15,748 bases of DNA. Source: a virus (taxonomy: Duplodnaviria; Heunggongvirae; Uroviricota; Caudoviricetes). Made by a program: the position numbers and the translations under genes. Shown in pieces: positions 1 through 15,748 of the stretch. The notes beneath the pieces are model-generated. The model was given only the letters and a program-made list of their open reading frames with translations. It was not told the origin of the DNA and ran no database searches. The DNA lies in the IMG/VR virus record IMGVR_UViG_2651869748_000011; one strand, given 5' to 3'. Position 1 is the first letter of the stretch. Each line of letters starts with the position of its first letter.

Positions 1-246
1 TCAGTATTTCCCCGATACCTTGTGTGCAAATTGCATCAGATAGTTGATAGCCTTTTGTTTGTCGTTCTGGCTGAGTTCGTGCTTACCACAGAATACAGCC
101 ATTCCGAATCCGGCTTGTGATTGCGCCATCCCCATAGCAGCCATCACATCAGTACCGGAAAGAGAGTCAGAAGCCGTAGCCCGTGGTGAGTCGCTCATCA
201 TCGGGCTTTTTGGCGAATGAAATTTAGCTACGCTTTCGAGTCTCAT
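1..246 (-). CDS. Q: Late antiterminator Q, N-terminal fragment only (81 codons, then in-frame TGA at 1-3); likely inactivated
   Basis: The translation [44 protein letters not shown]...[10 protein letters not shown] matches my memory of the lambda Q N-terminus. Lambda Q is about 207 aa. The ATGA overlap with the upstream phosphatase stop matches lambda. The stop codon sits at the window edge. Confidence 0.8.
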
Positions 247-908
247 GCGCCTTCTCCCTGTACCTGAATCAATGTGAGGTTTCCGCAGAACACTGCGCCG
301 GTATCGATATACATCTGGTTGGCAAACTTGAGTGGTTTCACTGCTGGCGTATGACCAAAGATGAACGTGTCCGCACCTTTGATTTCTTTCACGATCCCGT
401 CTTGTGAGTTGCTGATTCGTTCGCGGTTCCAGATTACCTGCTGATGATCAACTGGTTTTCCAAACTCGTATTCGTCACAAGGATAATCGGCGTGGCAGAT
501 GACATATTTTTTATCTTTGCTCACCAGTTCGATGATTAACGGAAGTTCATCTGCTTTATGGGCAAGAGCTTTAGCCAGAATTTCTTTGTCGTAATCGAGA
601 TTAAAGAACCATCCACCGCCATTAAGCAGCCAGTGATTAACGTTTCCACGCTCTGATAAGCCATCAATCATCATTTGCTCATGGTTTCCACGTACAGCTC
701 TGAACCAGGGGAATGTGATTAATTCCAGGCATTCGACGTTCTCTGCACCACGATCAACCAAATCGCCCACCGAGATAAGCAGGTCTTTTTTGTTGTCGAA
801 TCCAATCGTATCCAGTTTGTTCATCAGGTTCGTGTAGCATCCGTGCAGATCGCCAACTACCCAAATATTTCGGTATTTGCTGCCATCAATTTTTTCGTAA
901 TAGCGCAT
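243..908 (-). CDS. ninI: Ser/Thr protein phosphatase (lambda PPase, NinI)
   Basis: From the internal Met, the sequence [25 protein letters not shown]...GDLVDRG...GNHE...GHTP carries the calcineurin-like metallophosphatase motifs (GDxHG, GDxVDRG, GNHE). It is near-identical to lambda phosphatase (221 aa). The ORF-track start at 983 is an upstream extension. Confidence 0.95.
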
Positions 909-1092
909 CTCTTTCACTCCATCCGCGATGAACCATAAGAACATCGTTGACGATGGCGTGCATTTTCCCGTCTTTATCATCAACGTATTTTCTGACCGTA
1001 CCGCGACTACATTTCAGTCTGCGTGCTACTTCTGTCTGGTTTCCGTATGCTTCAACGAGCATGTCTGGAATGGTTTTTACTGAGAACGTCAT
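886..1092 (-). CDS. ninH: NinH protein
   Basis: The 68-aa translation [37 protein letters not shown]... matches lambda NinH, which has an HTH-like segment. It sits between ninG and the phosphatase, as in lambda. Confidence 0.9.
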
Positions 1093-1700
1093 GCGGCCTC
1101 ACTTCTGCTATTTCGCAGGTCTTTGAGTTTCTGTTGGTACTCTGCCTTGATCGCCTTGCACTCTTCGACAGTCCAGCGATGGCGGCTATGGTTTGATTCG
1201 ATTTCGTCTACTGCTTCCTGCCCGATGCGGTTAATCAGTTCGACGCGATACGGAACGAGATTTCCGCTTTTGTGCTGGTTGCACACCACGCATTGCTTGT
1301 GAATATTGCGTTCATCAAATCGGAGTTGAGGTGCCGCAGCAGTTGTCCGGTAATGTCCGGCATCCCACTGAGCAGACGTGAGCGTTCCGCACGAGATACA
1401 TGGTAAGTCGCGGTCTCTTTCTCTGATGAAGGCGTTTACAGCTTGTTGGGCTTGTTTAATCCAGTAACTGCGGGGCTTTAAGGCGAGTTTTCGAATCTTC
1501 AGTTTATCTTTCTGTTTCTGCTCCTCTCGTCGTCGTTTCTTCTCTGCTGCTTTTTCCGCTTTTTCGCGTTCTTTGCTTCGTCGTTCCAGTGCTATCTTTG
1601 TTCCACACTCTGGAGAGCACCACCACTGATTAGCGAATGCAGGGTGAAACCATTCCCGACATTCTTCGTTTTTACATCGTCTTCGCGCTTGTTTAGCCAT
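1089..1700 (-). CDS. ninG: NinG / Rap recombination endonuclease
   Basis: The 203-aa translation [33 protein letters not shown]...[11 protein letters not shown]... is near-identical to lambda NinG (Rap). Its start overlaps the upstream stop (TAATG). Confidence 0.95.
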
Positions 1701-1969
1701 TATGGTTCGCTCCAGTAATTCTCAATTGCAGCAGCCATTCTCTGCATCCACTCTGCCAGCTTTAACGCGGCTTCTCTTTCAGAACCACATTTAGGGAAAT
1801 CCTTCATTTCCATGCTGGCCTTATATGTTCTGAATGCCAGGTCTCCGGTAATAACCAGCTCCTGATCAAGCACCGAGCGTTTATTCCGGTGTTGAACGTA
1901 ATAGACAGATTCAGTCCGCATTTCTTCTCTGTCTTTTTTGAAGGAAATAAGCTCAGAGAAATCACTCAT
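1700..1969 (-). CDS. Hypothetical nin-region protein (89 aa), not present in lambda
   Basis: This is an intact ORF. It is translationally coupled on both sides: its ATG overlaps the ninF stop, and its stop overlaps the ninG ATG. I recognise no family. Confidence 0.6.
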
Positions 1970-2138
1970 CGTCTTCTTCCTCGTACATTGAGCTATTCGG
2001 ATCGCTCATCAGTTCTGCGCAGCAGTGCTCACACACATGAACTTCCAGCACATGCAGCTTCTGACCGCAGTTAGCGCACGTTAAAGCCCGCTCGACGCTT
2101 TCTTTCTGGTATTGAAGAGATTGGGATGGGCTAAGCAT
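1962..2138 (-). CDS. ninF: NinF-like small zinc-ribbon protein (58 aa); below the ORF-track size cut-off
   Basis: Manual translation of the minus strand gives [58 protein letters not shown]. From ESVERALTCANCGQKLHVLEVHVCEHCCAELMSDPNSSM onward it matches lambda NinF, with CxxC...CxxC. Its start overlaps the upstream stop. Confidence 0.8.
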   Translation of the reverse strand: MLSPSQSLQYQKESVERALTCANCGQKLHVLEVHVCEHCCAELMSDPNSSMYEEEDDE

Positions 2139-2490
2139 TATTGGCGTCCTGCATCATGAGAAAGACAATCATGGCGGCGCGGAGGGAATTTTCATGTATA
2201 GCTAGCTTAGATTTACAGTCGGCCACACCACGTGCACCCCACTCGTCTTCATCGAGATTGATGATGCTAATCCTGTACTTCTCAATAATCGGCCATGAGG
2301 CGCTAGGATCATTGCAGTAGTCAGGCAAAGGGTTTAATGGCTCAAAAGTTGTATCAGCATTTCCGTAATACCATTTGTTGGTGTTATTCCCTGATGTTTC
2401 CGGTTTACATGCCCAAAGGCCTTTAAAAATTATGTCTCCTACCATTCTGTTAATTTCAAAATCACTTAACTGTGAATAATCCATTGTCAT
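2131..2490 (-). CDS. NinX-like phage protein (DUF2591-type), nin-region accessory gene
   Basis: The translation [18 protein letters not shown]...[29 protein letters not shown] resembles NinX/DUF2591 proteins of P22-like and lambdoid phages, from memory. The ATG at 2490 forms an ATGA overlap with the ninE stop. An alternative ATG lies at 2484. Confidence 0.6.
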
Positions 2491-2663
2491 TTCCTCGCAC
2501 GATGTCTTAGCCACCGGATATCCCACAGGTGAGCCGTGTAATTGAAGGTTTTTACGTCAGATTCTTTTGGGATTGGCTTGCGTTTATTTCTGGAGCGTTT
2601 CGTTGGAAGGTATTTGCAGTTTTCGCAGATGATGTCGGTGATACTTCGTCGCTGTCGTCTCAT
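2487..2663 (-). CDS. ninE: NinE protein
   Basis: The internal start gives [58 protein letters not shown] (58 aa), matching lambda NinE. It has an ATGA overlap with the methyltransferase stop. Confidence 0.85.
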
Positions 2664-3187
2664 GCCGCCCTCCTGACGCCCTGCCCGATCGCCATCAATG
2701 CCGCTTTGGATACGGTAGTAAACATCCGTCGAGGACTGATGAACGGTCGCCAAATCAGCAGCATGGAACCTTTGCTGTTTCCCTTCTTCTCCAGCCCTGT
2801 CGATGGTTCGATAAAATTAATCCGTCCATCAGTGATAATACGAACTTCGTCAACACTCTCCAGAGCCTTGCTGAACCATCCGACAGACATATCCTCTGGC
2901 ACAAGCATCACTACCGTCTGTCGCTGTTGTATGCACTGCTCAGCGGCTTTTTCCACCCACGGCCTGATATTGCTGTACGGTGGGTTATTCCAGATTGCAC
3001 CGTGGCTTACCCACTCAGAATTGAGCGCGTCGTCGGCCTCAGTTAACCAGTGAGCGCACAGAGCATTTTTGTCGCTCGCTGCCGAATCCAGCCAGAATCC
3101 AAACTCAATATCCAGTGCATCAAAAAGCCAAAGCGGCGTTTGCCAGCAGTCCTTGTCGTGTGCTGGCGTATTTGATTTGATAGTCAT
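2660..3187 (-). CDS. Phage DNA N6-adenine methyltransferase (Dam-like, phage N-6-MTase family)
   Basis: The translation [37 protein letters not shown]...NPPY contains the DPPY/NPPY catalytic motif and the CWQTP motif typical of the phage Dam family. It has an ATGA overlap with the ninB stop and occupies the lambda ninC/D position. Confidence 0.85.
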
Positions 3188-3624
3188 GCAGCCCGATCTC
3201 CCCATCTCGCTTTCCACTCCAGAGCCAGTCTCGCTTCGTCTGACCACTTAACGCCACGCTCTGTACCGAATGCCTGTATAAGCTCTAATAGCTCCGCAAA
3301 TTCGCCTACACGCATCCTGCTGGTTGACTGGCCTATTACCACAAAGCCATTCCCGGCAAGGTTAGGAACAACATCCTGCTGCTTTAATGCTGCGGTAAAC
3401 ACACACTTCCAGCTTTCTGCATCCAGCCAGCGACCATGCCATTCAACCTGACGAGAGACGTCACCTAAGCAGGCCCATAGCTTCCTATTTTGGTCTAAGC
3501 TGCGGTTGCGTTCCTGAATGGTTACTACGATTGGTTTGGTTGGGTCTGGAAGGATTTGCTGTACTGCGTGAATAGCGTTTTGCTGATGTGCTGGAGATCG
3601 AATTTCAAAGGTTAGTTTTTTCAT
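3184..3624 (-). CDS. ninB: NinB (Orf) recombination mediator
   Basis: From the internal Met, MKKLTFEIRSPAHQQNAIHAVQQILPDPTKPIVVTIQERNRSLDQNRKLWA... (146 aa) matches lambda NinB. Confidence 0.95.
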   Translation of the reverse strand: MKKLTFEIRSPAHQQNAIHAVQQILPDPTKPIVVTIQERNRSLDQNRKLWACLGDVSRQVEWHGRWLDAESWKCVFTAALKQQDVVPNLAGNGFVVIGQSTSRMRVGEFAELLELIQAFGTERGVKWSDEARLALEWKARWGDRAA

Positions 3625-3640
3625 GACTTCCCTCTCCCCC

Positions 3641-3672
3641 AAATAAAAAGGCCTGCGATTACCAGCAGGCCT
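3641..3672 (-). terminator. Intrinsic terminator tR2 between ren and ninB
   Basis: The minus strand reads AGGCCTGCtggtaatcGCAGGCCT followed by TTTTTATTT, an 8-bp GC-rich stem plus a U-tract. It has the same sequence and position as lambda tR2. Confidence 0.8.
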
Positions 3673-3697
3673 GTTATTAGCTCAGTAATGTAGATGG

Positions 3698-3988
3698 TCA
3701 TCTTTTAACTCCATATACCGCCAATACCCGTTTCATCGCGGCACTCTGGCGACACTCCTTAAAAATCAGGTTCGTGCTCATCTTTCCTTCCCGTTCTTCC
3801 CTGGTAGCAAACCGGTAATACACCGTTCGCCAGACCTTACCTTCGATAACCAGAAGACCTGCCCGTGCCATTTTAGCCGCGGCCTGATTTATGCTGGTTA
3901 CTGTTGCGCCTGTTAGCGCGGCAACGTCCGGCGCACAGAAGCTATTATGCGTCCCCAGGTAATGAATAATTGCCTCTTTGCCCGTCAT
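3698..3988 (-). CDS. ren: Ren protein (Rex exclusion escape)
   Basis: The 96-aa translation MTGKEAIIHYLGTHNSFCAPDVAALTGATVTSINQAAAKMARAGLLVIEGK... matches lambda Ren. It has an ATGA overlap with the P stop. Confidence 0.95.
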   Translation of the reverse strand: MTGKEAIIHYLGTHNSFCAPDVAALTGATVTSINQAAAKMARAGLLVIEGKVWRTVYYRFATREEREGKMSTNLIFKECRQSAAMKRVLAVYGVKR

Positions 3989-4686
3989 ACACTTGCTCCT
4001 TTCAGTCCGAACTTAGCTTTAATTTCTGCGATCTTCGCCAGAGCCTGTGCACGATTTAGAGGTCTACCGCCCATAACAGGAAGTTGTTTTACTGGTTCAG
4101 GTATCGTCTCACCACGGTTAATTCGCGCTGTCATACAGGTCAGTTCATCGGCAGCCTTGCGCCGTAATTCCGCATCAGTAAGCGCATTGGCCCGCATGTT
4201 CTGATACAGGTTGGTAACCAGCCAGTAGTGCGCGTTTGATTTCCACGGATAAGACTCCGCATCCGGATACAGGCCTCGCTTCCGGCAATACTCGTAAACC
4301 ATATCAACCAGCTCGCTGACGTTTGGCAGTCCGGCGATAACGGATGCTTCTTCCCGGCACCATGCAACAAACTGCCCGGGTGATGGCAGAAATGGTCGAT
4401 TCTGCCGACGGGCTACGCGCATTCCTGCGTTAACCTGTTCCATCGTGGTGATCCCGTTTTCCCGAAAAGCCAGAACCCACTGGCGACGGATTTCGTTCAC
4501 TTCGTTCTGGTCACGGTTAGCCAGGCTCGCCGGGAAAGTTGCCAGTAACTGGCTGAACACACCGTTGATGATCTGCGCTACCTGCTGTACCTGCGGCTTT
4601 TCGTCGTACTGTTCCGGCATGTTGTTGGCGATCCGACGCATCTGCTCACGGTCAAAGTTAACCATCTGTGCGGCGATGTTTTTCAT
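3985..4686 (-). CDS. P: Replication protein P (DnaB helicase loader)
   Basis: The 233-aa translation MKNIAAQMVNFDREQMRRIANNMPEQYDEKPQVQQVAQIINGVF... matches lambda P. Confidence 0.97.
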   Translation of the reverse strand: MKNIAAQMVNFDREQMRRIANNMPEQYDEKPQVQQVAQIINGVFSQLLATFPASLANRDQNEVNEIRRQWVLAFRENGITTMEQVNAGMRVARRQNRPFLPSPGQFVAWCREEASVIAGLPNVSELVDMVYEYCRKRGLYPDAESYPWKSNAHYWLVTNLYQNMRANALTDAELRRKAADELTCMTARINRGETIPEPVKQLPVMGGRPLNRAQALAKIAEIKAKFGLKGASV

Positions 4687-5582
4687 AGATCCACCCCGTA
4701 AATCCAGTCTGTGTTTGTCAGGTCGAGTTTTGGTTTGCTGGCTGTCACGACTGCCTGTTGCTTGTTACGGTTGATTTCGAGCTGGGTCCACTTGTCGCGG
4801 AGTTTGGCCGGACTAAGCACGTTACCGGACCAGAAGTTGTCCTGGCATGCCCAGCGGAACAGCACGCACATGTCGCGGTGGTTACGTCCGTCACGTTCAC
4901 GCATCAGGCGGATATCGTTAGCCCACCCTGCAAAATTCGGTTTTCTGGCTGATGGCGCGATGGTCTTCACCATGTCAAACATCCACTCTGCGGCGGTCAG
5001 GTCTTCTGCTGTCCCCCACTTGCTGCCGCTCTGAATTGCAGCATCCGGTTTCACCACAGAAAGATCGTTTTCTGGCTGGTCAGAGGATTCGCCAGAATTC
5101 TCTGACGAATAATCTTTTCTTTTTTCTTTTGTAATAGTGTCTTTTGTGTCCCTCTGTTTTGAGGGATAGCAATCCCCCAATTTGAGGGATGTTTTATCCC
5201 TCGTTTTAGGGGATTTTCCCTCGTTTTGAGGGATACACCATTCTGAGATGTTTTTATTTGGTCCAAACATGCCGCCTTGCTGCTTGATAATATTCATTCT
5301 GACGAGTTCTAACTTGGCTTCATTGCACCGTTTGACGGGTAACTTTGTAATCTCGCTAAGTTGAGAATCGGTGACTCTGTCCATTGGTTTATTCCACCCA
5401 TAGGTTTTACGCAGAATGGCAAGCAGCACTTTAAACTGTCGCTTGGTCAGATCTGCGCCCGAATAAGCCTCAAGCAGCATATTTGATAGTCTGGCGTAAC
5501 CATCATCGAGATCTGCCACATTACGCTCCTGTCCGGCAAAGTTACCTCTGCCGAAGTTGAGTATTTTTGCTGTATTTGTCAT
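4683..5582 (-). CDS. O: Replication initiator O
   Basis: The 299-aa translation MTNTAKILNFGRGNFAGQERNVADLDDGYARLSNMLLEAYSGADLTKRQFKVLLAILRKTYGWNKPMDR... matches lambda O. The gene contains the ori iterons. Confidence 0.97.
   Translation of the reverse strand: MTNTAKILNFGRGNFAGQERNVADLDDGYARLSNMLLEAYSGADLTKRQFKVLLAILRKTYGWNKPMDRVTDSQLSEITKLPVKRCNEAKLELVRMNIIKQQGGMFGPNKNISEWCIPQNEGKSPKTRDKTSLKLGDCYPSKQRDTKDTITKEKRKDYSSENSGESSDQPENDLSVVKPDAAIQSGSKWGTAEDLTAAEWMFDMVKTIAPSARKPNFAGWANDIRLMRERDGRNHRDMCVLFRWACQDNFWSGNVLSPAKLRDKWTQLEINRNKQQAVVTASKPKLDLTNTDWIYGVDL
5105..5234. repeat. Lambda-type replication origin inside O: four O-binding iterons (5149-5233) plus an adjacent AT-rich unwinding region (5105-5147)
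   Basis: Four internally palindromic repeats of about 18 bp are present: tccctctgttttgaggga, atcccccaatttgagggat, atccctcgttttaggggat and tccctcgttttgaggga. They are flanked by aataatcttttcttttttcttttgtaatagtgtctttt. Confidence 0.9.
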
Positions 5583-5592
5583 AATGACTCCT

Positions 5593-5669
5593 GTTGATAG
5601 ATCCAGTAATGACCTCAGAACTCCATCTGGATTTGTTCAGAACGCTCGGTTGCCGCCGGGCGTTTTTTA
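5593..5669 (+). ncRNA. oop: oop antisense RNA (overlaps the 3' end of cII)
   Basis: The sequence GTTGATAGATCCAGTAATGACCTCAGAACTCCATCTGGATTTGTTCAGAACGCTCGGTTGCCGCCGGGCGTTTTTTA matches the 77-nt lambda oop RNA with its terminator hairpin. The upstream Po elements are TTGCTG..CATAAT. Confidence 0.85.
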
Positions 5670-5908
5670 TTGGTGAGAATCGCAGCAACTTGTCGCGCCA
5701 ATCGAGCCATGTCGTCGTCAACGACCCCCCATTCAAGAACAGCAAGCAGCATTGAGAACTTTGGAATCCAGTCCCTCTTCCACCTGCTGATCTGCGACTT
5801 ATCAACGCCCACAGCTTCCGCTGTCTTCTCAGTTCCAAGCATTGCGATTTTGTTAAGCAACGCACTCTCGATTCGTAGAGCCTCGTTGCGTTTGTTTGCA
5901 CGAACCAT
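5615..5908 (-). CDS. cII: Transcriptional activator cII
   Basis: From the internal Met, MVRANKRNEALRIESALLNKIAMLGTEKTAEAVGVDKSQISRWKRDWIPKFSMLLAVLEWGVVDDDMARLARQVAAILTNKKRPAATERSEQIQMEF (97 aa) matches lambda cII. The ORF-track start at 5968 is an extension. Confidence 0.97.
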   Translation of the reverse strand: MVRANKRNEALRIESALLNKIAMLGTEKTAEAVGVDKSQISRWKRDWIPKFSMLLAVLEWGVVDDDMARLARQVAAILTNKKRPAATERSEQIQMEF

Positions 5909-5918
5909 ATGTAAGTAT
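5886..5918 (+). promoter_or_regulatory. PRE promoter with cII-binding TTGC-N6-TTGC repeat
   Basis: The sequence ttgcgtttgtttgc at 5886-5899 is followed by a -10-like aagtat. The arrangement and location over the cII start match lambda PRE. Confidence 0.7.
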
Positions 5919-5987
5919 TTCCTTAGATAACAATTGATTGAATGTATGCAAATAAATGCATACACCATAGGTGTGGTTTAATTTGAT

Positions 5988-6019
5988 GCCCTTTTTCAGG
6001 GCTGGGATGTGTAAGAGCG
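5988..6019 (-). promoter_or_regulatory. nutR (boxA CGCTCTTA plus boxB hairpin); the tR1 region follows downstream
   Basis: The minus strand reads CGCTCTTACACATCCCAGCCCTGAAAAAGGGC. boxB is GCCCTGAAAAAGGGC at 5988-6002 and boxA is at 6012-6019. The site lies between cro and cII as in lambda. Confidence 0.85.
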
Positions 6020-6027
6020 GGAATATC

Positions 6028-7383
<1,356 letters not shown>

Positions 7384-7433
7384 TCCCCACCTCAATCTCG
7401 ATAACCAAAAAACAAACTATTTTCCGTTTAAAA

Positions 7434-7507
7434 ACAATGGAGTTTGTTTTTCATGCCCCTTTTTTACAATATTTCTTGTTTACAACATACAATCTTTCTT
7501 GTAATTT
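7434..7507 (+). promoter_or_regulatory. 434 left operator (three ACAA-N6-TTGT sites at 7434-7447, 7466-7479 and 7489-7502) and the PL promoter
   Basis: The sites are acaatggagtttgt, acaatatttcttgt and acaatctttcttgt. A sigma70 promoter overlaps them: TTTACA (7479-7484), a 17-nt spacer, then TAATTT (7502-7507), reading towards N. Confidence 0.8.
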
Positions 7508-7547
7508 TAAGCCATCAGCAGGACGCACTGACCACCATTGAAGGTGA

Positions 7548-7578
7548 TGCTCTTAAAAATTAAGCCCTGAAGAAGGGC
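7548..7578 (+). promoter_or_regulatory. nutL (boxA-like TGCTCTTAA plus boxB GCCCTGAAGAAGGGC)
   Basis: The sequence tgctcttaaaaattaaGCCCTGAAGAAGGGC is as in lambda nutL, with one mismatch in boxA. It lies between PL and N. Confidence 0.85.
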
Positions 7579-7736
7579 AGCATTCAAAGCAGAAGGCTTT
7601 GGGGTGTGTGATACGAAACGAAGCATTGGCCGGAAGTGCGAATCCGGATTAGCTGCAAATGAGCCAATCGTGGGGTGTTTTCGTTCAGGACTACGACTCA
7701 CACACACCACCAAAGCTAACTGACAAGAGAATCCAG

Positions 7737-8060
7737 ATGGATGCACAAACACGCCGCCGCGAACGTCGCGCAGAGAAACAGGCTCAATGGAAAGTAGCAA
7801 ATCCCCTGTTGGTTGGGGTAAGCGCAAAACCAGTTAACCGCCCTATTCTCTCGCTGAATCGCAAACCGAAATCACGAGTAGAAAGCGCACTGAATCCGAT
7901 AGACCTTACAGTGCTGGCTGAATACCACGAACAGATTGAAAGCAACCTGCAACGTATTGAGCGCAAGAATCAGCGCACATGGTACAGCAAGCCTGGCGAA
8001 CGCGGCATAACATGCAGTGGACGCCAGAAAATTAAGGGAAAATCGATTCCTCTTACCTAG
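7737..8060 (+). CDS. N: Antitermination protein N
   Basis: From the internal Met, MDAQTRRRERRAEKQAQWKVANPLLVGVSAKPVNRPILSLNRKPKSRVESALNPIDLTVLAEYHEQIESNLQRIERKNQRTWYSKPGERGITCSGRQKIKGKSIPLT (107 aa) has the arginine-rich motif. It is about 97% identical to lambda N, from memory. Confidence 0.95.
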   Translation: MDAQTRRRERRAEKQAQWKVANPLLVGVSAKPVNRPILSLNRKPKSRVESALNPIDLTVLAEYHEQIESNLQRIERKNQRTWYSKPGERGITCSGRQKIKGKSIPLT

Positions 8061-8615
8061 TTACTTAGATATTGGCCTTGGCTTTATCTCAATATTATAT
8101 GGATCATAGCTGGCAACTAATTCAGTCCAGTAAATATCCTCAATAGGGAATAATATATGCTTCCCGTTCCATCGGGAAAAAGTTTTGTTCAACACACCAA
8201 GCTCAATCAACTCACTAATGTATGGGAATTGTTTTGATGTAACCACATACTTCCTGCCTTCATTAAGGGCTGCGCACAAAACCATAGATTGCTCTTCTGT
8301 AAGGTTTTGAATTACCGATCGCACTTTATCGTTTTGCATCTTAATGCGTTTTCTTAGCTTAAATCGCTTATATTTGGCGCTGGCAATAGCTGATAATCGA
8401 TGCACATTAATTGCTAGCGAAAATGCAAGAGCAAAGACGAAAACATGCCACACATGAGGAATACCGATTCTCTCATTAACATATTCAGGCCAGTTATCTG
8501 GGCTTAAAAGCAGAAGTCCAACCCAGATAACGATCATATACATGGTTCTCTCCAGAGGTTCATTACTGAACACTCGTCCGAGAATAACGAGTGGATCCAT
8601 TTCTATACTCATCAA
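8061..8615 (-). CDS. sieB: Superinfection exclusion protein B (SieB), membrane protein
   Basis: The 184-aa ORF runs antisense to the PL operon between N and ral, as lambda sieB does. It has two hydrophobic helices (MYMIVIWVGLLLLS, VWHVFVFALAFSLAINV). The sequence matches my memory of lambda SieB. The true start may be the second Met (8612). Confidence 0.75.
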   Translation of the reverse strand: MMSIEMDPLVILGRVFSNEPLERTMYMIVIWVGLLLLSPDNWPEYVNERIGIPHVWHVFVFALAFSLAINVHRLSAIASAKYKRFKLRKRIKMQNDKVRSVIQNLTEEQSMVLCAALNEGRKYVVTSKQFPYISELIELGVLNKTFSRWNGKHILFPIEDIYWTELVASYDPYNIEIKPRPISK

Positions 8616-8739
8616 ACTGTAGGGGTTGTAATAGTTTATCCGATTTCTCGCTGTAGGGGTACACGAGAACCACCGAGCCTGATGTGGTTAAAAGACAGGC
8701 ACAATCTTTACTACCGCAATCCACTATTTAAGGTGATAT

Positions 8740-8826
8740 ATGGAAGAAGAATTTGAAGAGTTCGAAGAGCATCCGCAGGATGTAATGGAACAGTACCAGG
8801 ACTATCCGTATGACTACGACTATTGA
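8740..8826 (+). CDS. Small acidic protein (28 aa), lambda orf28-like
   Basis: Manual translation gives MEEEFEEFEEHPQDVMEQYQDYPYDYDY*, preceded by AAGGTGA. It overlaps the ral start. It is too short for the ORF track. Confidence 0.5.
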   Translation: MEEEFEEFEEHPQDVMEQYQDYPYDYDY

Positions 8827-8989
8827 TAAGAATCAATGGTGTGGACAATTCAAGCGATGCAATGGATGCAAGCTGCAATCGGAATGCATGGTTAAGCCTG
8901 AAGAAATGTTTCCTGTAATAGAAGATGGGAAATATGTCGATAAATGGGCAATACGAACGACGGCAATGATTGCCAGAGAACTTGGTTAA
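8810..8989 (+). CDS. ral: Ral (restriction alleviation), shortened by a premature TAA (59 aa versus 66 aa)
   Basis: Manual translation gives MTTTIDKNQWCGQFKRCNGCKLQSECMVKPEEMFPVIEDGKYVDKWAIRTTAMIARELG*. After the TAA the same frame continues QNNKAA*, which is the lambda Ral C-terminus. Confidence 0.8.
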   Translation: MTTTIDKNQWCGQFKRCNGCKLQSECMVKPEEMFPVIEDGKYVDKWAIRTTAMIARELG

Positions 8990-9109
8990 CAGAACAACAA
9001 AGCTGCCTGATAGTGGCCTTTATTTTTGGCATAAATAACAGAATAAACACTGCACTGAACCGCCCCGGGAATCCTGGAGACTAAACTCCCTGAGAAAGAG
9101 GTAAACAGG

Positions 9110-9436
9110 ATGACTAAAAATACTCGTTTTTCCCCTGAAGTCCGTCAACGGGCAGCCCGTATGGTTCTGGAAAGTCAGGGCGAATATGACTCACAATGGG
9201 CGACAATTTGTTCCATTGCTCCAAAGATTGGCTGTACGCCGGAGACTCTGCGTGTCTGGGTTCGCCAGCATGAGCGGGATACCGGGGGCGGTGATGGAGG
9301 GCTCACCACCGCTGAACGTCAGCGTCTGAAAGAGCTGGAGCGTGAAAATCGTGAACTGCGCCGCAGTAACGATATCCTTCGCCAGGCTTCCGCTTATTTT
9401 GCGAAGGCGGAGTTCGACCGCCTCTGGAAAAAATAA
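9110..9436 (+). CDS. IS629-like transposase OrfA (HTH, leucine-zipper region)
   Basis: The 108-aa translation is [57 protein letters not shown]...[34 protein letters not shown]. It ends in TGG AAA AAA TAA; the A6 run is the candidate -1 frameshift site. Confidence 0.95.
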
Positions 9437-10323
9437 TGCCGCTGCTGGATAAGCTGCGTGAGCAGTACGGGGTCGGACCGCTATGCAGCGAACTGCATAT
9501 TGCCCCGTCAACGTATTACCACTGTCAGCAACAGCGACATCATCCGGATAAACGCAGTGCCCGTGCGCAGCGCGATGACTGGCTGAAGAAAGAGATACAG
9601 CGCGTATACGATGAAAATCACAAGGTATACGGTGTGCGTAAAGTCTGGCGTCAGTTGTTACGGGAAGGAATCAGAGTGGCCAGATGCACTGTGGCACGTC
9701 TCATGGCGGTTATGGGACTTGCCGGTGTTCTCCGGGGTAAAAAGGTCCGCACTACCGTCAGCCGGAAAGCCGTTGCCGCATGCGACCGCGTAAACCGTCA
9801 GTTCGTGGCAGAACGTCCAGACCAGTTGTGGGTGGCTGATTTTACCTGGGTAAGCACATGGCAGGGCTTCGTTTATGTGGCGTTCATCATTGATGTGTTC
9901 GCCGGATACATCGTGGGATGGCAGGTCTCATCATCCATGGAAACAACATTCGTGCTGGATGCACTGGAGCAGGCGTTGTGGGCCCGTCGGCCGTCCGGCA
10001 CAATCCATCACAGTGATAAAGGTTCTCAGTATGTATCGCTGGCCTACACGCAGCGGCTTAAGGAAGCCGGATTACTGGCATCAACAGGGAGTACTGGCGA
10101 CTCGTATGACAACGCGATGGCGGAGAGCATCAATGGTCTTTACAAAGCGGAGGTAATACACCGTAAGAGCTGGAAAAACCGTGCAGAAGTGGAACTGGCC
10201 ACACTCACGTGGGTGGACTGGTATAACAATCGACGATTGCTGGAAAGGCTGGGCCATACTCCCCCGGCAGAAGCAGAAAAAGCTTATTATGCTTCCATCG
10301 GAAACGATGATCTGGCAGCCTGA
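9436..10323 (+). CDS. IS629-like transposase OrfB (DDE / rve catalytic domain)
   Basis: The 295-aa ORF is in the -1 frame relative to orfA (TAATG overlap). DDE-type motifs are present: WVADFTWV, HHSDKGSQY and DNAMAESINGLYK. Confidence 0.95.
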   Translation: MPLLDKLREQYGVGPLCSELHIAPSTYYHCQQQRHHPDKRSARAQRDDWLKKEIQRVYDENHKVYGVRKVWRQLLREGIRVARCTVARLMAVMGLAGVLRGKKVRTTVSRKAVAACDRVNRQFVAERPDQLWVADFTWVSTWQGFVYVAFIIDVFAGYIVGWQVSSSMETTFVLDALEQALWARRPSGTIHHSDKGSQYVSLAYTQRLKEAGLLASTGSTGDSYDNAMAESINGLYKAEVIHRKSWKNRAEVELATLTWVDWYNNRRLLERLGHTPPAEAEKAYYASIGNDDLAA

Positions 10324-10365
10324 GTTCACAGATAAAACACTCTCCAGGAAACCCGGGGCGGTTCA

Positions 10366-10554
10366 CTGCGTGTGTGGGTTCGTCAGCATGAGCGGGATAC
10401 CGGGAGTGGTGATGGTGGACTCACCACCGCTGAACGTCAGCGTCTGAAAGAGCTGGAACGTGAAAATCGTGAACTGCGCCGCAGTAACGATATCCTTCGC
10501 CAGGCTTCCGCTTATTTTGCGAAGGCGGAGTTCGACCGCCTCTGGAAAAAATAA
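10366..10554 (+). pseudogene. Truncated orfA remnant of the second IS629-like copy
   Basis: The in-frame remnant [62 protein letters not shown] corresponds to residues 47-108 of OrfA. The native start, RBS and HTH are absent. Confidence 0.8.
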
Positions 10555-11441
10555 TGCCGCTGCTGGATAAGCTGCGTGAGCAGTACGGGGTCGGACCGGT
10601 ATGCAGTGAACTGCATATTGCCCCGTCAACGTATTACCACTGTCAGCAACAGCGACATCATCCTGATAAACGCAGTGCCCGTGCTCAGCGCGATGACTGG
10701 CTGAAGAGAGAGATACAGCGCGTATACGATGAAAATCACAAGGTATACGGTGTGCGTAAAGTCTGGCGCCAGTTGTTACGCGAAGGTATCAGGGTGGCCA
10801 GATGTACAGTGGCGCGCCTCATGGCGGTTATGGGACTTGCCGGTGTTCTCCGGGGTAAAAAGGTCCGTACTACCGTCAGCCGGAAAGCCGTTTCCGCAGG
10901 CGACCGCGTAAACCGTCAGTTCGTGGCAGAACGTCCTGACCAGCTGTGGGTGGCTGATTTTACTTACGTCAGCACATGGCAGGGCTTCGTCTATGTGGCG
11001 TTCATCATTGATGTGTTTGCCGGATGTATCGTGGGGTGGCGAGTCTCATCGTCTATGGAAACGACATTCGTGCTGGATGCACTGGAGCAGGCGTTGTGGG
11101 CCCGTCGGCCGTCCGGCACAGTCCATCACAGTGATAAAGGTTCTCAGTATGTATCACTGGCCTATACGGAGCGACTAAAAGAAGCAAAACTGCTGGCATC
11201 AACAGGGAGTACAGGTGACTCGTATGACAACGCGATGGCGGAGAGCATCAATGGTCTTTACAAAGCGGAGGTAATACACCGTAAGAGCTGGAAAAACCGT
11301 GCAGAAGTGGAACTGGCCACACTCACGTGGGTGGACTGGTATAACAATCGACGATTGCTGGGAAGGCTGGGTCATATCCCTCCGGCAGAAGCAGAAAAAG
11401 CTTATTATGCTTCCATCAGAAACGATGATCTGGCAGCCTGA
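10554..11441 (+). CDS. IS629-like transposase OrfB (second copy, intact ORF)
   Basis: The 295-aa ORF is about 96% identical to 9436-10323 and keeps the DDE motifs. It probably cannot be made as an OrfAB fusion because orfA is truncated. Confidence 0.85.
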   Translation: MPLLDKLREQYGVGPVCSELHIAPSTYYHCQQQRHHPDKRSARAQRDDWLKREIQRVYDENHKVYGVRKVWRQLLREGIRVARCTVARLMAVMGLAGVLRGKKVRTTVSRKAVSAGDRVNRQFVAERPDQLWVADFTYVSTWQGFVYVAFIIDVFAGCIVGWRVSSSMETTFVLDALEQALWARRPSGTVHHSDKGSQYVSLAYTERLKEAKLLASTGSTGDSYDNAMAESINGLYKAEVIHRKSWKNRAEVELATLTWVDWYNNRRLLGRLGHIPPAEAEKAYYASIRNDDLAA

Positions 11442-11713
11442 GTTCACAGATAAAACACTCTCCAGGAAAACCGGGGCGGTTCAAATAACATTGTGCGTAC
11501 TCCTCTTGAGAAGGTGAGAACTATCGGTATCGCAGACACAGTTATGCCTACGGGTCTCCCCGCATCGGTCATTCTCAAAAGGTTTAAAATAGGGTTAGGT
11601 TTGATCACTCTGAACGATCAATCGAAGACATTACGATTGGAACAAACGATCAATAGGTATGTGGTTATTTGCTAAGCTGCGACAACCTTTACAAAGACAC
11701 TCAGGAATGTTTC

Positions 11714-12022
11714 ATGCCCAAATTAGCTATTAGCTTATTACTTTACTTGGCCTGCTTTTATGCAGTTGGATATGGCGCTGGATATATAACAGGTGGAATA
11801 ACTTGGCACACACTGTATATGCTTGAACGTATAATTACCGTAGCCCTACTTGCATTCATTCCAGTGTTTATCTTTGCGGCTTTATTAAATGCATCCAAAA
11901 GACAAGGAATAATAAAATCACTTTCTGTCTCAGCGATTAATTTAATCCCTTCGGCTATCGCATTACTTATAGGATTTACTGACGCAGTGACCAGAAAGTT
12001 TCTTACTTATTTTCTCGGTTAA
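11714..12022 (+). CDS. Small integral membrane protein (102 aa, about 3-4 TM helices), unknown function
   Basis: The translation is MPKLAISLLLYLACFYAVGYGAGYITGGITWHTLYMLERIITVALLAFIPVFIFAALLNASKRQGIIKSLSVSAINLIPSAIALLIGF... The RBS AGGAA lies 7 nt upstream. The gene is AT-rich relative to its neighbours. It is convergent with the minus-strand operon and overlaps it by 20 nt. Confidence 0.6.
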   Translation: MPKLAISLLLYLACFYAVGYGAGYITGGITWHTLYMLERIITVALLAFIPVFIFAALLNASKRQGIIKSLSVSAINLIPSAIALLIGFTDAVTRKFLTYFLG

Positions 12023-12194
12023 CTGACATATTGCGAATGACCAACTGTTCTATTAGCTCATTACGAGAATAAAATGGTCGGTCATTCGTAGCCGCTTTAT
12101 CCACGCCAAGCATCGACAATAGAATAGAAGTGGGAAGCCCCCGGTAACGCAGGGTCAAACGGCCTTCGGGAGTGCGTGGGTCAATCATAGCCAT
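12003..12194 (-). CDS. Hypothetical small protein (63 aa) downstream of the KilA-N gene
   Basis: The translation is MAMIDPRTPEGRLTLRYRGLPTSILLSMLGVDKAATNDRPFYSRNELIEQLVIRNMSVNRENK. GGAG lies 9 nt upstream of the ATG at 12194. The ORF-track start at 12209 is a GTG inside the KilA-N gene. The helix-extended-helix-like segment is only a guess. Confidence 0.45.
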   Translation of the reverse strand: MAMIDPRTPEGRLTLRYRGLPTSILLSMLGVDKAATNDRPFYSRNELIEQLVIRNMSVNRENK

Positions 12195-12196
12195 TG

Positions 12197-12682
12197 TTAA
12201 AGTCTCCACTCACAGCGACCGACACGTAGCTCCTCAAACTCCTCTTTCGAGACGAGTTGTCCAGCCCTGTAGTGCGATACCGTGTGCTTCTTAATGAATG
12301 CCTTAGAGTCCGGCGTGATGTCGTCCGAAGATGCTACAGCGGCCTGTACGCTGGCACTGGAGGTCATAGACACAAAGGCATCCGCTACAGCTATTCCGTA
12401 CTCAAAGTCCAGCCACTCGCCAAACTTGACGGCGGACGTGGGGTCAGCAAGCCATGACGTACCGAGGCGACCCATATCAACTTTCTTTATGCGGCGGTTT
12501 TTCTGCCCCATAAGATAGCGCCCGACTTTGGTCTGAGCGAAACGCTTAACCATTGTCTTCTCGGTGTCTTCTACCTTACCAATCTGAATACCGACCCGGC
12601 GAATTTCATCCAATCGGAACAATCCGTCTTGACTGGTGAGGTCCTGACCGAAGATATGGATAGTGTATTCTTGTTGAGACAT
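12197..12682 (-). CDS. KilA-N domain-containing protein (161 aa)
   Basis: The RBS is AAGGAG, 9 nt upstream. The segment ...RLGTSWLADPTSAVKFGEWLDFEYGIAV... matches the conserved GTW(v/l)hp..a..fa.WlsPef core of the KilA-N (PF04383-like) DNA-binding domain, from memory. Confidence 0.65.
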   Translation of the reverse strand: MSQQEYTIHIFGQDLTSQDGLFRLDEIRRVGIQIGKVEDTEKTMVKRFAQTKVGRYLMGQKNRRIKKVDMGRLGTSWLADPTSAVKFGEWLDFEYGIAVADAFVSMTSSASVQAAVASSDDITPDSKAFIKKHTVSHYRAGQLVSKEEFEELRVGRCEWRL

Positions 12683-12905
12683 ATCGTTGTACTCCTTTTA
12701 TCTGCATCCTGAAGCCGCATCCTGCCGCCTACTCAAAGCCCCCAACGATAGGGAGACGGCAGGCAACAAGACGCAGATAGAATGACTTTGAGATTTGATG
12801 ATTAGTGTCGGCGGTGGCACTTATTTAAAACGAAAGGACAACAGCATATTTCCGCATGACTTGACGCATCAAGGCCAGAGGCAGAAATAAGTATTTGCTC
12901 GGTGT

Positions 12906-12928
12906 CGTTCCTAAGGTGATAGTTTAGT
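12906..12928 (-). promoter_or_regulatory. Second, degenerate T7-family phage-RNAP promoter-like sequence (predicted +1 G at 12911)
   Basis: The minus strand reads ACTAAACTATCACCTTAGGAACG. Positions -17..-5 are identical to the element at 13470-13458. The sequence differs from it at -4, -3, +3, +5 and +6. It lies between the 60-aa ORF stop and the KilA-N leader. Confidence 0.4.
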
Positions 12929-13110
12929 CAAACAGTAATGAACTTCGGAGAACTTGACTCGAAAGTGTTCAGGACTTCCAGTGAGACCCGAAGTATGGAG
13001 ATCATATTATAGCGACCATAGTTTACTTCGGACTGACAGGACTGGAGGCTGGACTTAAAGTTCTTCTTATTGGAATTGTGATAACACAATCCATAACAAG
13101 ATAAACTCAT
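12928..13110 (-). CDS. Hypothetical small protein (60 aa)
   Basis: The ATG at 13110 is preceded by TGAGGAGACC. The translation is MSLSCYGLCYHNSNKKNFKSSLQSCQSEVNYGRYNMISILRVSLEVLNTFESSSPKFITV. The stop TGA overlaps the -17 end of the second promoter-like element. I recognise no family, so coding status is uncertain. Confidence 0.35.
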   Translation of the reverse strand: MSLSCYGLCYHNSNKKNFKSSLQSCQSEVNYGRYNMISILRVSLEVLNTFESSSPKFITV

Positions 13111-13447
13111 GGTCTCCTCAAGCCTGCTGGTCAAGACTCAAAGCTCCAACCTCAGACACCACCACTGGTCTAACCTCTTTGAGTTTCCGCCTGTCCACAA
13201 ATGGATGGCAGACCTCAGCAATGATGTCTTGGTTCTTCAGTTATCCGCGCAGCGATTATCACAGAGCCAACTTAAAGTCGGATGTGGTCTTCTGCTCCCC
13301 GCCTGTCAAAAGGGAAGATAACCTACGTTAAAAGAGAATGGTCTCAGGCCAAGGTGATTTAACACTAGGCGTCTGCGGATGGTTTCCAATCGGTCCGCTA
13401 CCGGAAGCCTGAGACTATATGAATGTGTGGGTCGGTGACTTAGGGCC

Positions 13448-13470
13448 TCTCCCTATAGTGATAGTTTAGT
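13448..13470 (-). promoter_or_regulatory. T7-family single-subunit RNAP promoter-like sequence, K1F-type specificity block (predicted +1 G at 13453)
   Basis: The minus strand reads ACTAAACTATCACTATAGGGAGA. Positions -8..+6 (TCACTATAGGGAGA) are identical to the T7 consensus TAATACGACTCACTATAGGGAGA. Positions -12..-8 (ACTAT) match the K1F-type promoter, as I recall it. The element is intergenic, 18 nt after the DUF4145 stop. Confidence 0.65.
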
Positions 13471-13488
13471 CCCCCTTCCCCGTCAGCC

Positions 13489-14148
13489 CTACTCGTTAGC
13501 GGCCTGTTGCTGTTCCCTCGCTTTCCGGTCCCGGTCTTCAATGCCCTTAAGCGCCCGTTCCGGCATACTGTTAAACATGGCTTCGACTTCTTTCGGTCGA
13601 GTAATCTGCTCAGTGACAATAATGTTCAGCAGCTTAAAGAGACCATGCGCCAACTGAGGGTCGTCATCAATGTTAATTTCACCCGGATGTACCGCCTGAT
13701 TGCCAACAATACGACAGATGTCAGCAGCTCGCTGGACCAGTGGAGACAGCCCTTTAGCTACAAGGGACTTAATGTCCGTGTCGATATGCTTCCCCGGCTC
13801 ACCGAGATGGACCATCAGCTTTTGAAGACTTAAGCGCAGGAGTGCGGCAGCGCCCTTAGGTGACAGATTAATGATGCTTCTGGCTTCCATGTAGTCGGAC
13901 TTACAGTCTTCTGGCATGTCAGGATTAGGCAGCTCAACACTACCAGCCGCAGGAATCATCATATTGCCTTTATACCAATAAGCATTTTCATAGCAATGTT
14001 GACAATATGATAAGTGGAAATCAGTTTCCATATAAGTAGAATGAGGCGCAACTCCCACCATTGACCGCCAGCTTTGCTTGGAATAAACACCACAGTGCGG
14101 GCAATTAAAAGCTTTACCATCAAACACCGCCGGATAATACTCAGCCAT
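13489..14148 (-). CDS. Zinc-ribbon plus DUF4145 domain protein (219 aa), candidate phage-defence/abortive-infection cargo
   Basis: The N-terminus has CPHCG...CQHC (a zinc ribbon). The C-terminal segment [18 protein letters not shown]...[31 protein letters not shown] fits the DUF4145 signature (L..I..L...g.l....lR..GN.aaH), from memory. The start ATG overlaps the integrase stop (ATGGCTGA). Confidence 0.7.
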
Positions 14149-15748
14149 TTACTCCAGTCTCCTTATAAACATCAGCCATCACATTAACCAATCTATCTAC
14201 CTCGACTTCTTTCGCATACCTGTCATAGGTAATCGACCCTGAGCTATGACCCATAATCGCCTGAGCATACGCTAACCCGACCCCATGTTGTTTTAACTGG
14301 GTCGCCACTGTATGTCTGAATGAGTGGAACGCTAAGCCGCTACGGTCAGCGAGGACTTTAGGTAGCAACGTTCTGTTAAACCATTTGCTCACCTGCTCAC
14401 CGTAGCCGTTCTTCATCAGCTTGAGGCCATCGAATACCATAGCATTATCACCCTTAGCCTTTCTACGGTCTTCCACGAGTGACATAAAGTCAGCCAATAA
14501 AAAACCATAAGCACCATCTACCAACGGGACACAGCGGTCACTATGGGCGTTCTTGATGCTCTTACCCGGTAGGCTGCTATCGTCTTCGTTGATATGGATA
14601 TACACGGTCCCGGCCTCAGTGGTCCTGACGTCTTTGACCTGAAGCTGAGCCACCTCATTAAGTCTTGCTCCAGTGATTGCCGCCAGAGCAGTGACGTAAT
14701 AGTGGTAGGGCTTACCTGAGGTCTTCTGAGAGTACGCTTTAGCGGCGACCAGTAGTTGCCCTACCTGCTCAGGACTGAACGCATCACGAGCGTCGGAGGC
14801 TTTACGCTGCGGGACTTTCAGCTCAAGACCTTCGGTCAGGTTCTTAGCTATCAAGTCGTTGCGTACCGCCCACTTAAACACAGCAGCCATCTTGATAAGA
14901 TATTTATTGTTGATGGTAACGACATCCAAACAGTCAGTCTTAGACTCCCGGTTCAGCAGGTCAGACAGCGGCATAGACTTAAAGCGTTGCTTGCGGTTCT
15001 TCGGTATCTGCTGGAGGACTTCACGGACCCTGAGCATATCTGAACGGGTCGCCTTGCTGACATCCTGAATATCCAGATAGTCGAATATCTCGATTAACGT
15101 AGAGTGAGACGCTCGGTTCTCGCTTAGGGTCGCTGGCTTCCAGTTCTGAGCGTTCTCCTGCTCGTACTGCTCAATGAGAGACGCGAGGGTCAGTGCTTTA
15201 GGCTCGGGGACTTCAGGCTCTGCCAATACAGATAGGGAGACGGACGGTCTTAGACTGCCAGTCTCAGGCTCAAGGTAAGACAACAGGCCAGAGGTATCGC
15301 CTTTGAGTCTATCCTGACACGCTTTAAGCACACCGATAACGTCATTGATATAGCGATGCTGGTCTACAGTCAGATGCTCAGTCGCTACAGCTTCCCGAAG
15401 GTTGGACTTGATGTCATCGTACTGGTCAACGTAGAGCTGGTAGGACTCAGGGTCGTTCAGGTCATCGCGGCTGACACTAAGTTCCCACTCGACAATGGTC
15501 TTCAGGTGTTCCCGTAGCTCCTCATAAGAGGCGTTAGGGTTGTCTGCGTGGATTGCTTTAAGTGCTGACTTGATGTGCCGTGAGTGAGCCATAGCGGTAC
15601 GTCTATCCTTGGTCCGTAAAGATACTGACGCTAGTTTATAACGGTTGTGAGAAGGAAGCGAAGCGGTCAGGCGACTAGTGGTCTTCATCCTAAGACGGAT
15701 GTAAAAGACACCGTTACGCTGATAAAGGTAGGTTCTTGAATTGAGCAT
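14141..15748 (-). CDS. Tyrosine recombinase / integrase with a long N-terminal extension (535 aa); the ATG is at the window edge
   Basis: The C-terminal catalytic motifs are present: [13 protein letters not shown] (Arg I), [13 protein letters not shown] (H-x-x-R) and [15 protein letters not shown] (His, Tyr nucleophile). The start codon occupies the last three bases of the window, so the true N-terminus could lie further upstream. Confidence 0.9.

Follow-up and report, generated by a model that had tools for sequence, protein, structure and literature searches.

The viral record IMGVR_UViG_2651869748_000011 is a 15,748-nt stretch of Caudoviricetes DNA, here called the window, and its right-hand end (positions 11484–15748, read on the minus strand) is an integrase-bearing island. 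Comparison with other loci, labelled L001–L020, identifies this region as the integrase-proximal two thirds of an integrative element of Enterobacterales, ~6.4 kb in length, that has been broken by the insertion sequence IS629. The island carries the defence gene RAZR and promoters of the type used by T7-group phages, and its intact relatives carry a capsid gene as well; we propose for the element a probable role as a satellite or defence element of lytic T7-family phages, of a kind not described before. An earlier note on this DNA had offered two readings: a defence or satellite island that stays silent until a T7-family RNA polymerase (RNAP) arrives, and the stump of a temperate T7-like element whose own RNAP gene lay past the IS629 junction. 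It correctly held that the window alone cannot decide between them and that intact homologues were needed. These have now been found, with a DUF6971 gene and a capsid gene, and neither an RNAP nor a DNA polymerase (DNAP) gene, beyond position 11484. The first reading is strongly supported by the comparison, through conserved sense-strand promoters and RAZR; the capsid gene, and the identity of the DUF4145 gene as a known defence gene, had not been foreseen.

Gene content of the island

All the genes and promoters that the earlier note had laid out on the minus strand are present at their positions, as are the three ribosome-binding sites it quoted. The first gene (14141–15748) encodes a complete tyrosine integrase of 535 aa (Pfam Phage_integrase, E 8.2e-19), with the boundary of its start codon at the last base of the window; the orthologue in L002 matches a PHROG integrase profile (E 1e-43). 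The start of the following gene overlaps the integrase stop by 8 nt (ATGGCTGA); the earlier note had described this gene as translationally coupled. This second gene (13489–14148, minus strand) encodes a 219-aa protein with a Cys4 zinc ribbon and a DUF4145 domain (Pfam, E 3.4e-13), and its identity as the known defence protein RAZR/PD-T7-4 is solid: the match to the PADLOC model PD-T7-4 (PDLC04109) has an E-value of 1.7e-99 and aligns residues 1–209 with profile positions 1–209 of 211. The zinc-ribbon cysteines C16, C19, C49 and C52 are all kept, together with R146 and H154 (within RIVGNQAVH), in agreement with the catalytic residues described for RAZR (PMC13017515).

According to that paper, RAZR combines a zinc finger with a HEPN RNase, becomes active when it assembles on the portal rings of phages (T7 gp8, T3 gp31), and brings the infection to an abortive end; activity against T7 and T3 is published there, and a hypervariable zinc finger is reported as the specificity determinant (PMC13017515). 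PD-T7-4 was recovered when fragments of E. coli DNA were screened functionally for resistance to T7, and its discoverers noted that it "often overlaps an integrase gene" (Vassallo 2022, PMC9519451). The window gene shares this overlap and is a full-length member of the family, with both the Cys4 ribbon and the DUF4145/HEPN domain; it differs from other alleles in the zinc-finger region, where DNA identity is 76–84%, compared with ~94% for the integrase; the allele studied in the RAZR paper is among those from which it differs there. Given the full-length PADLOC match and the published work on RAZR, this part of the finding was already known. The passages searched in both papers (PMC9519451, PMC13017515) make no mention of the surrounding island, the downstream phage promoters or the capsid module.

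Further along the minus strand, a regulator slot is occupied by a gene for a 161-aa protein (12197–12682), previously labelled KilA-N. In favour of this label, a BLASTP comparison with L010's true KilA-N protein gives a weak match (E 0.01) across the conserved W..A..W..F region; against it, the protein matches neither PF04383 nor any other Pfam family (even at E ≤ 1), and no PHROG, PADLOC or NCBIfam model. The same slot in other islands holds Rha (Pfam, E 3.5e-18) or KilA-N (E 1.3e-9) proteins, and homologues of the 161-aa protein are restricted to Enterobacterales islands. From its gene position and sequence, it may be a divergent KilA-N-like DNA-binding protein. Two nucleotides past its stop begins a 63-aa open reading frame (ORF; 12003–12194, minus strand), which is annotated in homologues, has DNA 82–98% identical in L001, L004, L005 and L009, and finds a counterpart in L013, where a 63-aa ORF likewise follows the 161-aa gene. 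No family in Pfam, PHROG, PADLOC or NCBIfam matches it; an excision or regulatory factor is our guess.

On the opposite strand lies an ORF for a predicted membrane protein of 102 aa (11714–12022, plus strand), and the ~510 nt without a sense ORF, described earlier as antisense to it, are confirmed. This ORF and the 161-aa and 63-aa genes travel as one module; islands with Rha or KilA-N have no similar DNA or annotated gene at the membrane-ORF position. The AT-richest part of the island (11584–12083, 33–39% GC versus ~50% elsewhere) coincides with it. Finally, the island ends in a new gene start cut by IS629, as had been supposed: the start signal AGAGGAGTACGCACA-ATG places the ATG at 11491–11489, and the frame is interrupted after 8–9 nt by the IS629 terminal repeat at 11483. 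The 8 nt that remain (11484–11491, minus strand; ATGTTATT) are the beginning of a DUF6971 gene, as seen from the strain L001, which is 100% identical, and from the intact island L002.

Phage-type promoters and non-coding elements

Two phage-type promoters are set into this row of genes. Promoter 1 (13446–13469, minus strand; CTAAACTATCACTATAGGGAGAGG) had been called phage-type and proves a perfect K1F-type match: its 21-mer TAAACTATCACTATAGGGAGA (13468–13448) has 0 mismatches, against 0 expected occurrences in 200 shuffles, and agrees at 21 of 21 positions with the K1F promoter type. Promoters of the T7 group are marked by a conserved sequence from −17 to +6, with a CACTATAGG-type core and a phage-specific region at −12 to −8. 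Its predicted +1 is the G at 13453. The sequence is identical to the K1F phi10-type promoter at L003 21006; the motif recurs in 8–10 copies per genome in Kayfunavirus (K1F-like) phages, the type is annotated as "promoter" in phages EcoDS1, PE3-1 and Ro45lw, and in the K1F genome the 21-mer sits 5' of the capsid gene. The claim of a second promoter (12905–12928, minus strand; predicted +1 near 12911) holds for the upstream half, which is K1F-type and shares the 12-mer CTAAACTATCAC (12927–12916; two window copies versus 0.06 expected), but not for the core, which is degenerate: it reads CACCTTAGG, two substitutions from CACTATAGG. The same mutated core is found in L001 and L004, and because of it promoter 2 is probably weakened in all three copies. 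The intact form in L002 (CTAAACTATCACTATAGGAACGACAC) has a single base different from the promoter that K1F carries upstream of its gene 9. A T7 class II pause motif (ATCTGTT) was also sought by eye and dropped, as the promoter 2 leader contains only TATCTGCGT.

Other copies of the island carry an extra promoter, absent from the window copy, that lies 29–31 nt upstream of promoter 1 and has a different specificity region: a T3-like sequence in L002 (AAACCCTCACTATAGG), TAATACACCTCACTATAG in L005 and, in L004, L006, L007 and L011, AAACCCACACTATAGG, a type with 8–10 copies per genome in vibriophages N4 and ICP3. Beyond the window lineage, sense-strand phage-type promoters occur in nine islands or loci examined, seven of which have arrays; in most islands the tandem promoters differ in specificity. 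The lineage inserted in ynfE (L010, L012) has a perfect K1F-type promoter and one variant, and the Citrobacter-type island L013 has three different phage-type promoters within ~140 nt (3279–3416 and 6454–6562, duplicated around an IS66 insertion). One of these reproduces, over 31 nt and without a mismatch, a promoter that is annotated at gene 9 in Citrobacter phage CR8, which suggests that promoters are captured directly from local phages. In L019 (E. coli 51008369SK1, a tRNA-Gly island; 6519–7074), an exact T7 consensus TAATACGACTCACTATAGGGAGA is flanked by two K11-type promoters, with a strongly AT-rich stretch after them, and a fourth type is also present; L020 (E. coli 58-3) likewise has an exact T7 consensus promoter. 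L017 contains six CACTAATGGGAGAC-type sites, arranged in pairs, and L015 three CGACTATAGAGAG-type sites.

The strand bias of these sequences is complete. Across 11 islands (73 kb), CACTATAGG occurs 21 times on the sense strand and 0 times on the antisense strand, with ~0.28 expected, and once in 157 kb of flanking DNA. The position of a promoter ahead of each transcription unit is conserved even where the island proteins are only 28% identical. Matches to sigma-70-like promoters, by comparison, number 2 in the island against 7.6 expected.

The predicted transcript from promoter 1 (12912–13453, minus strand) is ~540 nt long and consists of a ~340-nt leader followed by a 60-aa ORF (12928–13110) with the ribosome-binding site GAGGAGACC. 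The ORF reported by the earlier note is thus present, but it is doubtful as a gene: its C-terminal half is read in three frames or truncated across variants, and only the first ~34 codons are kept, so the region is treated here as an RNA or DNA element. The stretch between the two promoters is 93–98% identical by BLAST among variants, versus 76–89% for the flanking genes; its core (nt 123–328) retains 72% identity in the island of Citrobacter type, where the indels do not come in multiples of three. The predicted fold of the transcript is modestly better than that of shuffled sequences (z −2.1), and an Rfam scan of the region gave no match. By its pattern of conservation, the region is probably a non-coding functional RNA or DNA element, for which a phage-RNAP-primed origin as at the T7 origin, a packaging signal and an RNA are candidates. 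Within the most conserved core (13170–13330) lie two copies of GACAGGCGG(G/A)A, ~110 nt apart and both kept in the Citrobacter-type island; these could be protein-binding sites.

A second structured element precedes the regulator gene. The leader of the 161-aa gene forms a long stem-loop (12683–12790, minus strand) that ends at the ribosome-binding site AAGGAGTACA, with AAGGAGTACAACGAT as the end of the leader; RNAalifold, applied to seven islands of different lineages, finds 25 pairs, six of them compensatory. By analogy only, this stem-loop resembles the processed hairpins between T7 genes.

The intact element and its capsid protein

The window region is 100% identical in two genomes and 89–95% identical over its full length in ~15 more. 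A match to the lineage is found in 491 of 5,426 complete E. coli genomes (~9%), and the sister lineage of L019 in 151, mostly at ≥99% identity; homologues extend to Escherichia, Shigella, Citrobacter, Enterobacter, Salmonella, Yersinia, Photorhabdus, Kluyvera, Serratia and Pantoea. In intact loci, the integrase adjoins tRNA-Gly, and a 17–22 bp att repeat stands at both ends of the island; in L002, L004 and L006 this repeat is the 3' end of tRNA-Gly (TGGAGCGGGCGAAGGGA), and the other flank is formed by ygeQ and the type III secretion genes of ETT2. Insertion was recorded in at least four contexts (tRNA-Gly, the interior of ynfE and two others). The ynfE islands also contain a tandem 82-bp direct repeat, 80% identical (L010, 9604–9767; L012, 10811–10974), just 3' of the integrase gene and 5' of the first phage-type promoter.

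A recurrent gene order runs through the family: integrase, variable slot, DNA-binding protein, small ORF, DUF6971 and coat protein. In many islands RAZR occupies the variable slot, in others unknown genes do, and the DNA-binding slot is filled by a protein of the Rha, KilA-N or 161-aa type. The order recurs where the capsid proteins are only 28–43% identical, and at tRNA-Gly, in ynfE and at other sites. Despite the exchange of modules of differing length, the att-to-att distances are nearly constant, at 6371, 6420, 6375, 6396, 6351, 6535 and 6495 bp. A shorter relative, L020 (6001–10371; 4.35 kb), occupies the same att site. Besides an integrase, RAZR and the T7 promoter, it has a KilA-N gene and one for a 157-aa protein, and it represents either a derivative reduced in content or a form for defence alone. 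Two further kinds of sequence were considered and rejected as free forms of the element. Contigs of 6.4–7.8 kb with the capsid gene, taken as candidate episomes, were chromosomal fragments at a second insertion site in both cases inspected (n = 2), and homologue contigs of 39.6–39.8 kb, candidates for phage genomes or six-copy concatemers, were likewise chromosomal in both cases inspected (n = 2).

Past the point of the IS629 cut, intact islands contain only a 163-aa gene, a 324-aa gene and, after the latter, a terminator-like hairpin, followed by attR. The 163-aa protein belongs to Pfam DUF6971 (for example L002 19517–20008 and L017 8483–8899), a family of which a member has a deposited crystal structure (5EUR in the PDB, profile E 3.7e-32) under the label "uncharacterized protein". 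The Prokaryotic Genome Annotation Pipeline names "toprim" and "peptidase M16" for this protein were reproduced by no profile and are set aside. Its N-terminal half is globular and its C-terminal half helical and highly charged; a profile comparison with K1F gp9 was negative.

The 324-aa protein matches no Pfam, PHROG, PADLOC or NCBIfam model, and profile searches recover ~60 relatives. An AlphaFold model on a shallow alignment was unusable (predicted local distance difference test score, pLDDT, 43); rebuilt on the ~60 relatives, the model reached a pLDDT of 84.6 and displays an HK97-fold coat protein, with N-arm helix, E-loop hairpin, spine helix, and P and A domains. Foldseek returned 184 PDB and 185 viral matches at E ≤ 1e-3, and among the matches listed all are phage capsid or head proteins or encapsulins. 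One distant relative additionally carries an Ig-like Big_2 domain, typical of virion proteins. On the basis of this model, the 324-aa protein is an HK97-fold major capsid protein. It is the only recognisable part of a virion, replication or packaging set in the island, which in its intact form thus combines its own integrase and att sites with a coat protein.

A putative satellite of T7-group phages

Taking these features together, we propose, with a probability of roughly 55%, that the element is a satellite of virulent T7-group phages that is switched on by the RNAP of the infecting phage and carries RAZR as cargo. In the resting state, the element would sit at the 3' end of tRNA-Gly with only the integrase–RAZR pair expressed by host RNAP; RAZR, by the published account, is a constitutive abortive-infection sensor of phage portal rings. 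Upon infection, the RNAP of a T7-family phage, which for the window copy would be a K1F-like phage, would transcribe two units late and at high level. The first would be the conserved ~540-nt, probably non-coding, RNA or DNA element. The second would run from the stem-loop leader through the KilA-N/Rha-type DNA-binding protein, the 63-aa protein and DUF6971 to the HK97-fold capsid protein. The element would then excise; its own coat protein, with DUF6971 as a scaffold, would build or modify capsids, while portal, tail, replication and packaging machinery would be borrowed from the helper, which would be damaged in the process. At ~6.4 kb, the element would fit into a small shell or, in about six copies, into a head of T7 size.

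Several observations weigh against this proposal. Induction, excision, replication, packaging and transfer are all predictions from sequence comparison. Searches with Pfam, PHROG and NCBIfam reveal in the island no gene for a terminase, a portal or a primase, and none for a recognisable excisionase. No homology to the K1F terminal repeat, packaging site or origin appears in BLAST searches of the promoter 1–2 region and the whole island against phages, or at word size 7 against K1F; only the promoters match. The capsid protein shows no sequence similarity to K1F gp10 in a profile comparison, and in structure it lies as near to encapsulins as to the coats of phages. The scaffold role assigned to DUF6971 is suggested by gene position and the charged helical C-terminal half. 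A scan of IMG/VR gave only three matches, with identifiers of the isolate-genome type, and hence no virome evidence, and the related island L020 has a T7 promoter but neither DUF6971 nor a capsid gene. Lastly, RAZR is triggered by T7 and T3 portals, which would harm a satellite needing those helpers; the conflict would disappear if every allele of RAZR left its own helper unharmed.

The leading alternative, which we consider possible but distinctly less probable, is a pure defence island without particle transfer. The phage promoters would then be a tripwire, with the invader's RNAP driving the over-expression of proteins that interfere with it: a capsid acting as a decoy, or an encapsulin-like shell protein, that together with DUF6971 poisons or sequesters the helper's head assembly, and a KilA-N/Rha protein that disturbs phage expression or DNA, with RAZR as a second layer and the integrase allowing only slow horizontal spread. 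Such an island would have little reason to hold its length at 6.35–6.54 kb while modules are swapped, a constancy hard to explain without a packaging constraint. The four or more insertion contexts and the many genera point to frequent mobility, and a complete coat protein with a scaffold-like partner exceeds what interference needs. It is the constant size and the wide distribution over multiple sites that lead us to favour a satellite over a defence-only island.

Far less probable is an ordinary decaying element run by host RNAP, in which the promoter-like sequences are relics or chance matches. The mutated promoter 2 and the disruption of the island by IS629 in the window would fit such decay; the 21:0 strand ratio makes chance or relic explanations untenable, and both the exact or near-exact matches to promoters of different phage genera and the placement of promoters before transcription units at 28% protein identity argue in the same direction. 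The other reading of the earlier note, a temperate T7-like prophage stump, was prompted by an integrase beside T7-type promoters in a truncated island and is excluded: uninterrupted strains reach the att repeat beside ygeQ/ETT2 ~2 kb further on, with only DUF6971 and the capsid gene between, intact islands of 6.35–6.54 kb hold no RNAP, DNAP or full set of virion genes between their att sites, and none of 14 related loci examined has an RNAP, DNAP, portal or tail gene.

Returning to the satellite proposal, a fuller version can be put forward more tentatively. Among satellites of virulent coliphages of the T7 family, the ~6.4 kb islands could be the first to be described, having copied the late promoters of their helpers, often several in tandem. 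The matching RNAP might turn on a minimal scaffold and coat, forming satellite-sized capsids that the helper fills and tails, while cargo such as RAZR might exclude phages that are not helpers. T7-group phages are the textbook case of a strictly lytic phage, and phage therapy and expression technology draw heavily on them. No satellite of this group, and no account of the island family, its promoter arrays or its capsid gene, was found in the full-text literature searched, a body that excludes subscription journals. As E. coli chromosomes carry exact T7, K11, T3-like and K1F-type promoters, the polymerase of an invader may serve as a sensor of infection. The islands give direct and testable access to the way in which virulent phages are sensed by mobile elements, place the well-studied RAZR gene in its real genetic context and suggest a minimal capsid system of two genes with potential for use in packaging; hidden elements of the host may also be triggered by T7-based expression or by therapeutic phages.

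The window copy itself has most likely been left as an immobile remnant, though one still supplying RAZR. Its DUF6971 gene, capsid gene and attR were lost locally through IS629, and with promoter 2 probably weakened in addition the copy is unlikely to be mobile; defence through RAZR is probably retained. The lesion consists of two tandem IS629/IS1203 copies (9050–11483, plus strand; left end approximate, right end read at 11483), the second of which is truncated at its 5' end and lacks the start of orfA, so that 10372–10554 encodes only the C-terminal 60 aa. This pair links the island to the early region of a lambdoid prophage (1–9000), with replication proteins P and O, cII, cro and nin-region genes, a LexA-type cI repressor (6350–6982, plus strand), an N antiterminator (7659–8060, plus strand) and SieB (8061–8615, minus strand; Pfam, E 1e-29). 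Since N is directed toward the island, the integrase at 14141–15748 is not that prophage's own in the lambda arrangement. Not one of 5,426 complete E. coli genomes has the prophage–IS–IS–island junction, which is therefore a strain-specific rearrangement.

Among known satellites, chromosomal islands that are inducible by phages and form capsids (cf-PICIs), such as EcCI2, measure 10–15 kb, also encode portal, protease, connectors and a small terminase, and are induced by temperate helpers. The islands of the present family have 6–8 genes in 6.4 kb, with an HK97-fold coat and DUF6971 in place of a full head module and small terminase, and bear promoters of virulent T7-group phages. Closer in size are the minimalist chromosomal islands inducible by phages (PICMIs) of Vibrio and the marine integrative mobile elements encapsidated in virions (VEIMEs), which are very small integrative elements of ~5–7 kb and depend on virulent helpers. 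PICMIs lie next to fis and have a core of Fis, AlpA and a primase gene, whereas the present islands are inserted at tRNA-Gly or in ynfE and yield no such matches in Pfam, PHROG or NCBIfam. PICMIs and VEIMEs also differ in having no capsid genes and no reported phage RNAP promoters. Both are packaged as concatemers in full-size heads, according to the respective papers (PMC10803314; PMC9618062). Six copies of the 6.4 kb island would amount to ~38.4 kb, near the 39.7 kb of K1F.

In T7 itself, the island sequences find their counterpart in the class III promoters, which they match over the 23-bp promoter, and tandem promoters are the rule. The primary origin of T7 consists of the tandem promoters phi1.1A and phi1.1B followed by AT-rich DNA, and the tandem promoters of L019 are likewise followed by an AT-rich stretch; the island promoters differ in lying in a bacterial chromosome rather than a phage genome, and an origin function is a guess by analogy. 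P4, a satellite of Enterobacterales, offers a parallel in the way its late functions are switched on by helper-specific transcription factors, and in the defence hotspots that it carries. P4 is larger, at 11.6 kb, encodes a primase-helicase, remodels capsids through Sid and Psu, and relies on host RNAP together with activators of the helper and the satellite, whereas in the islands described here the helper's RNA polymerase would itself be the activator, acting through copied promoters.

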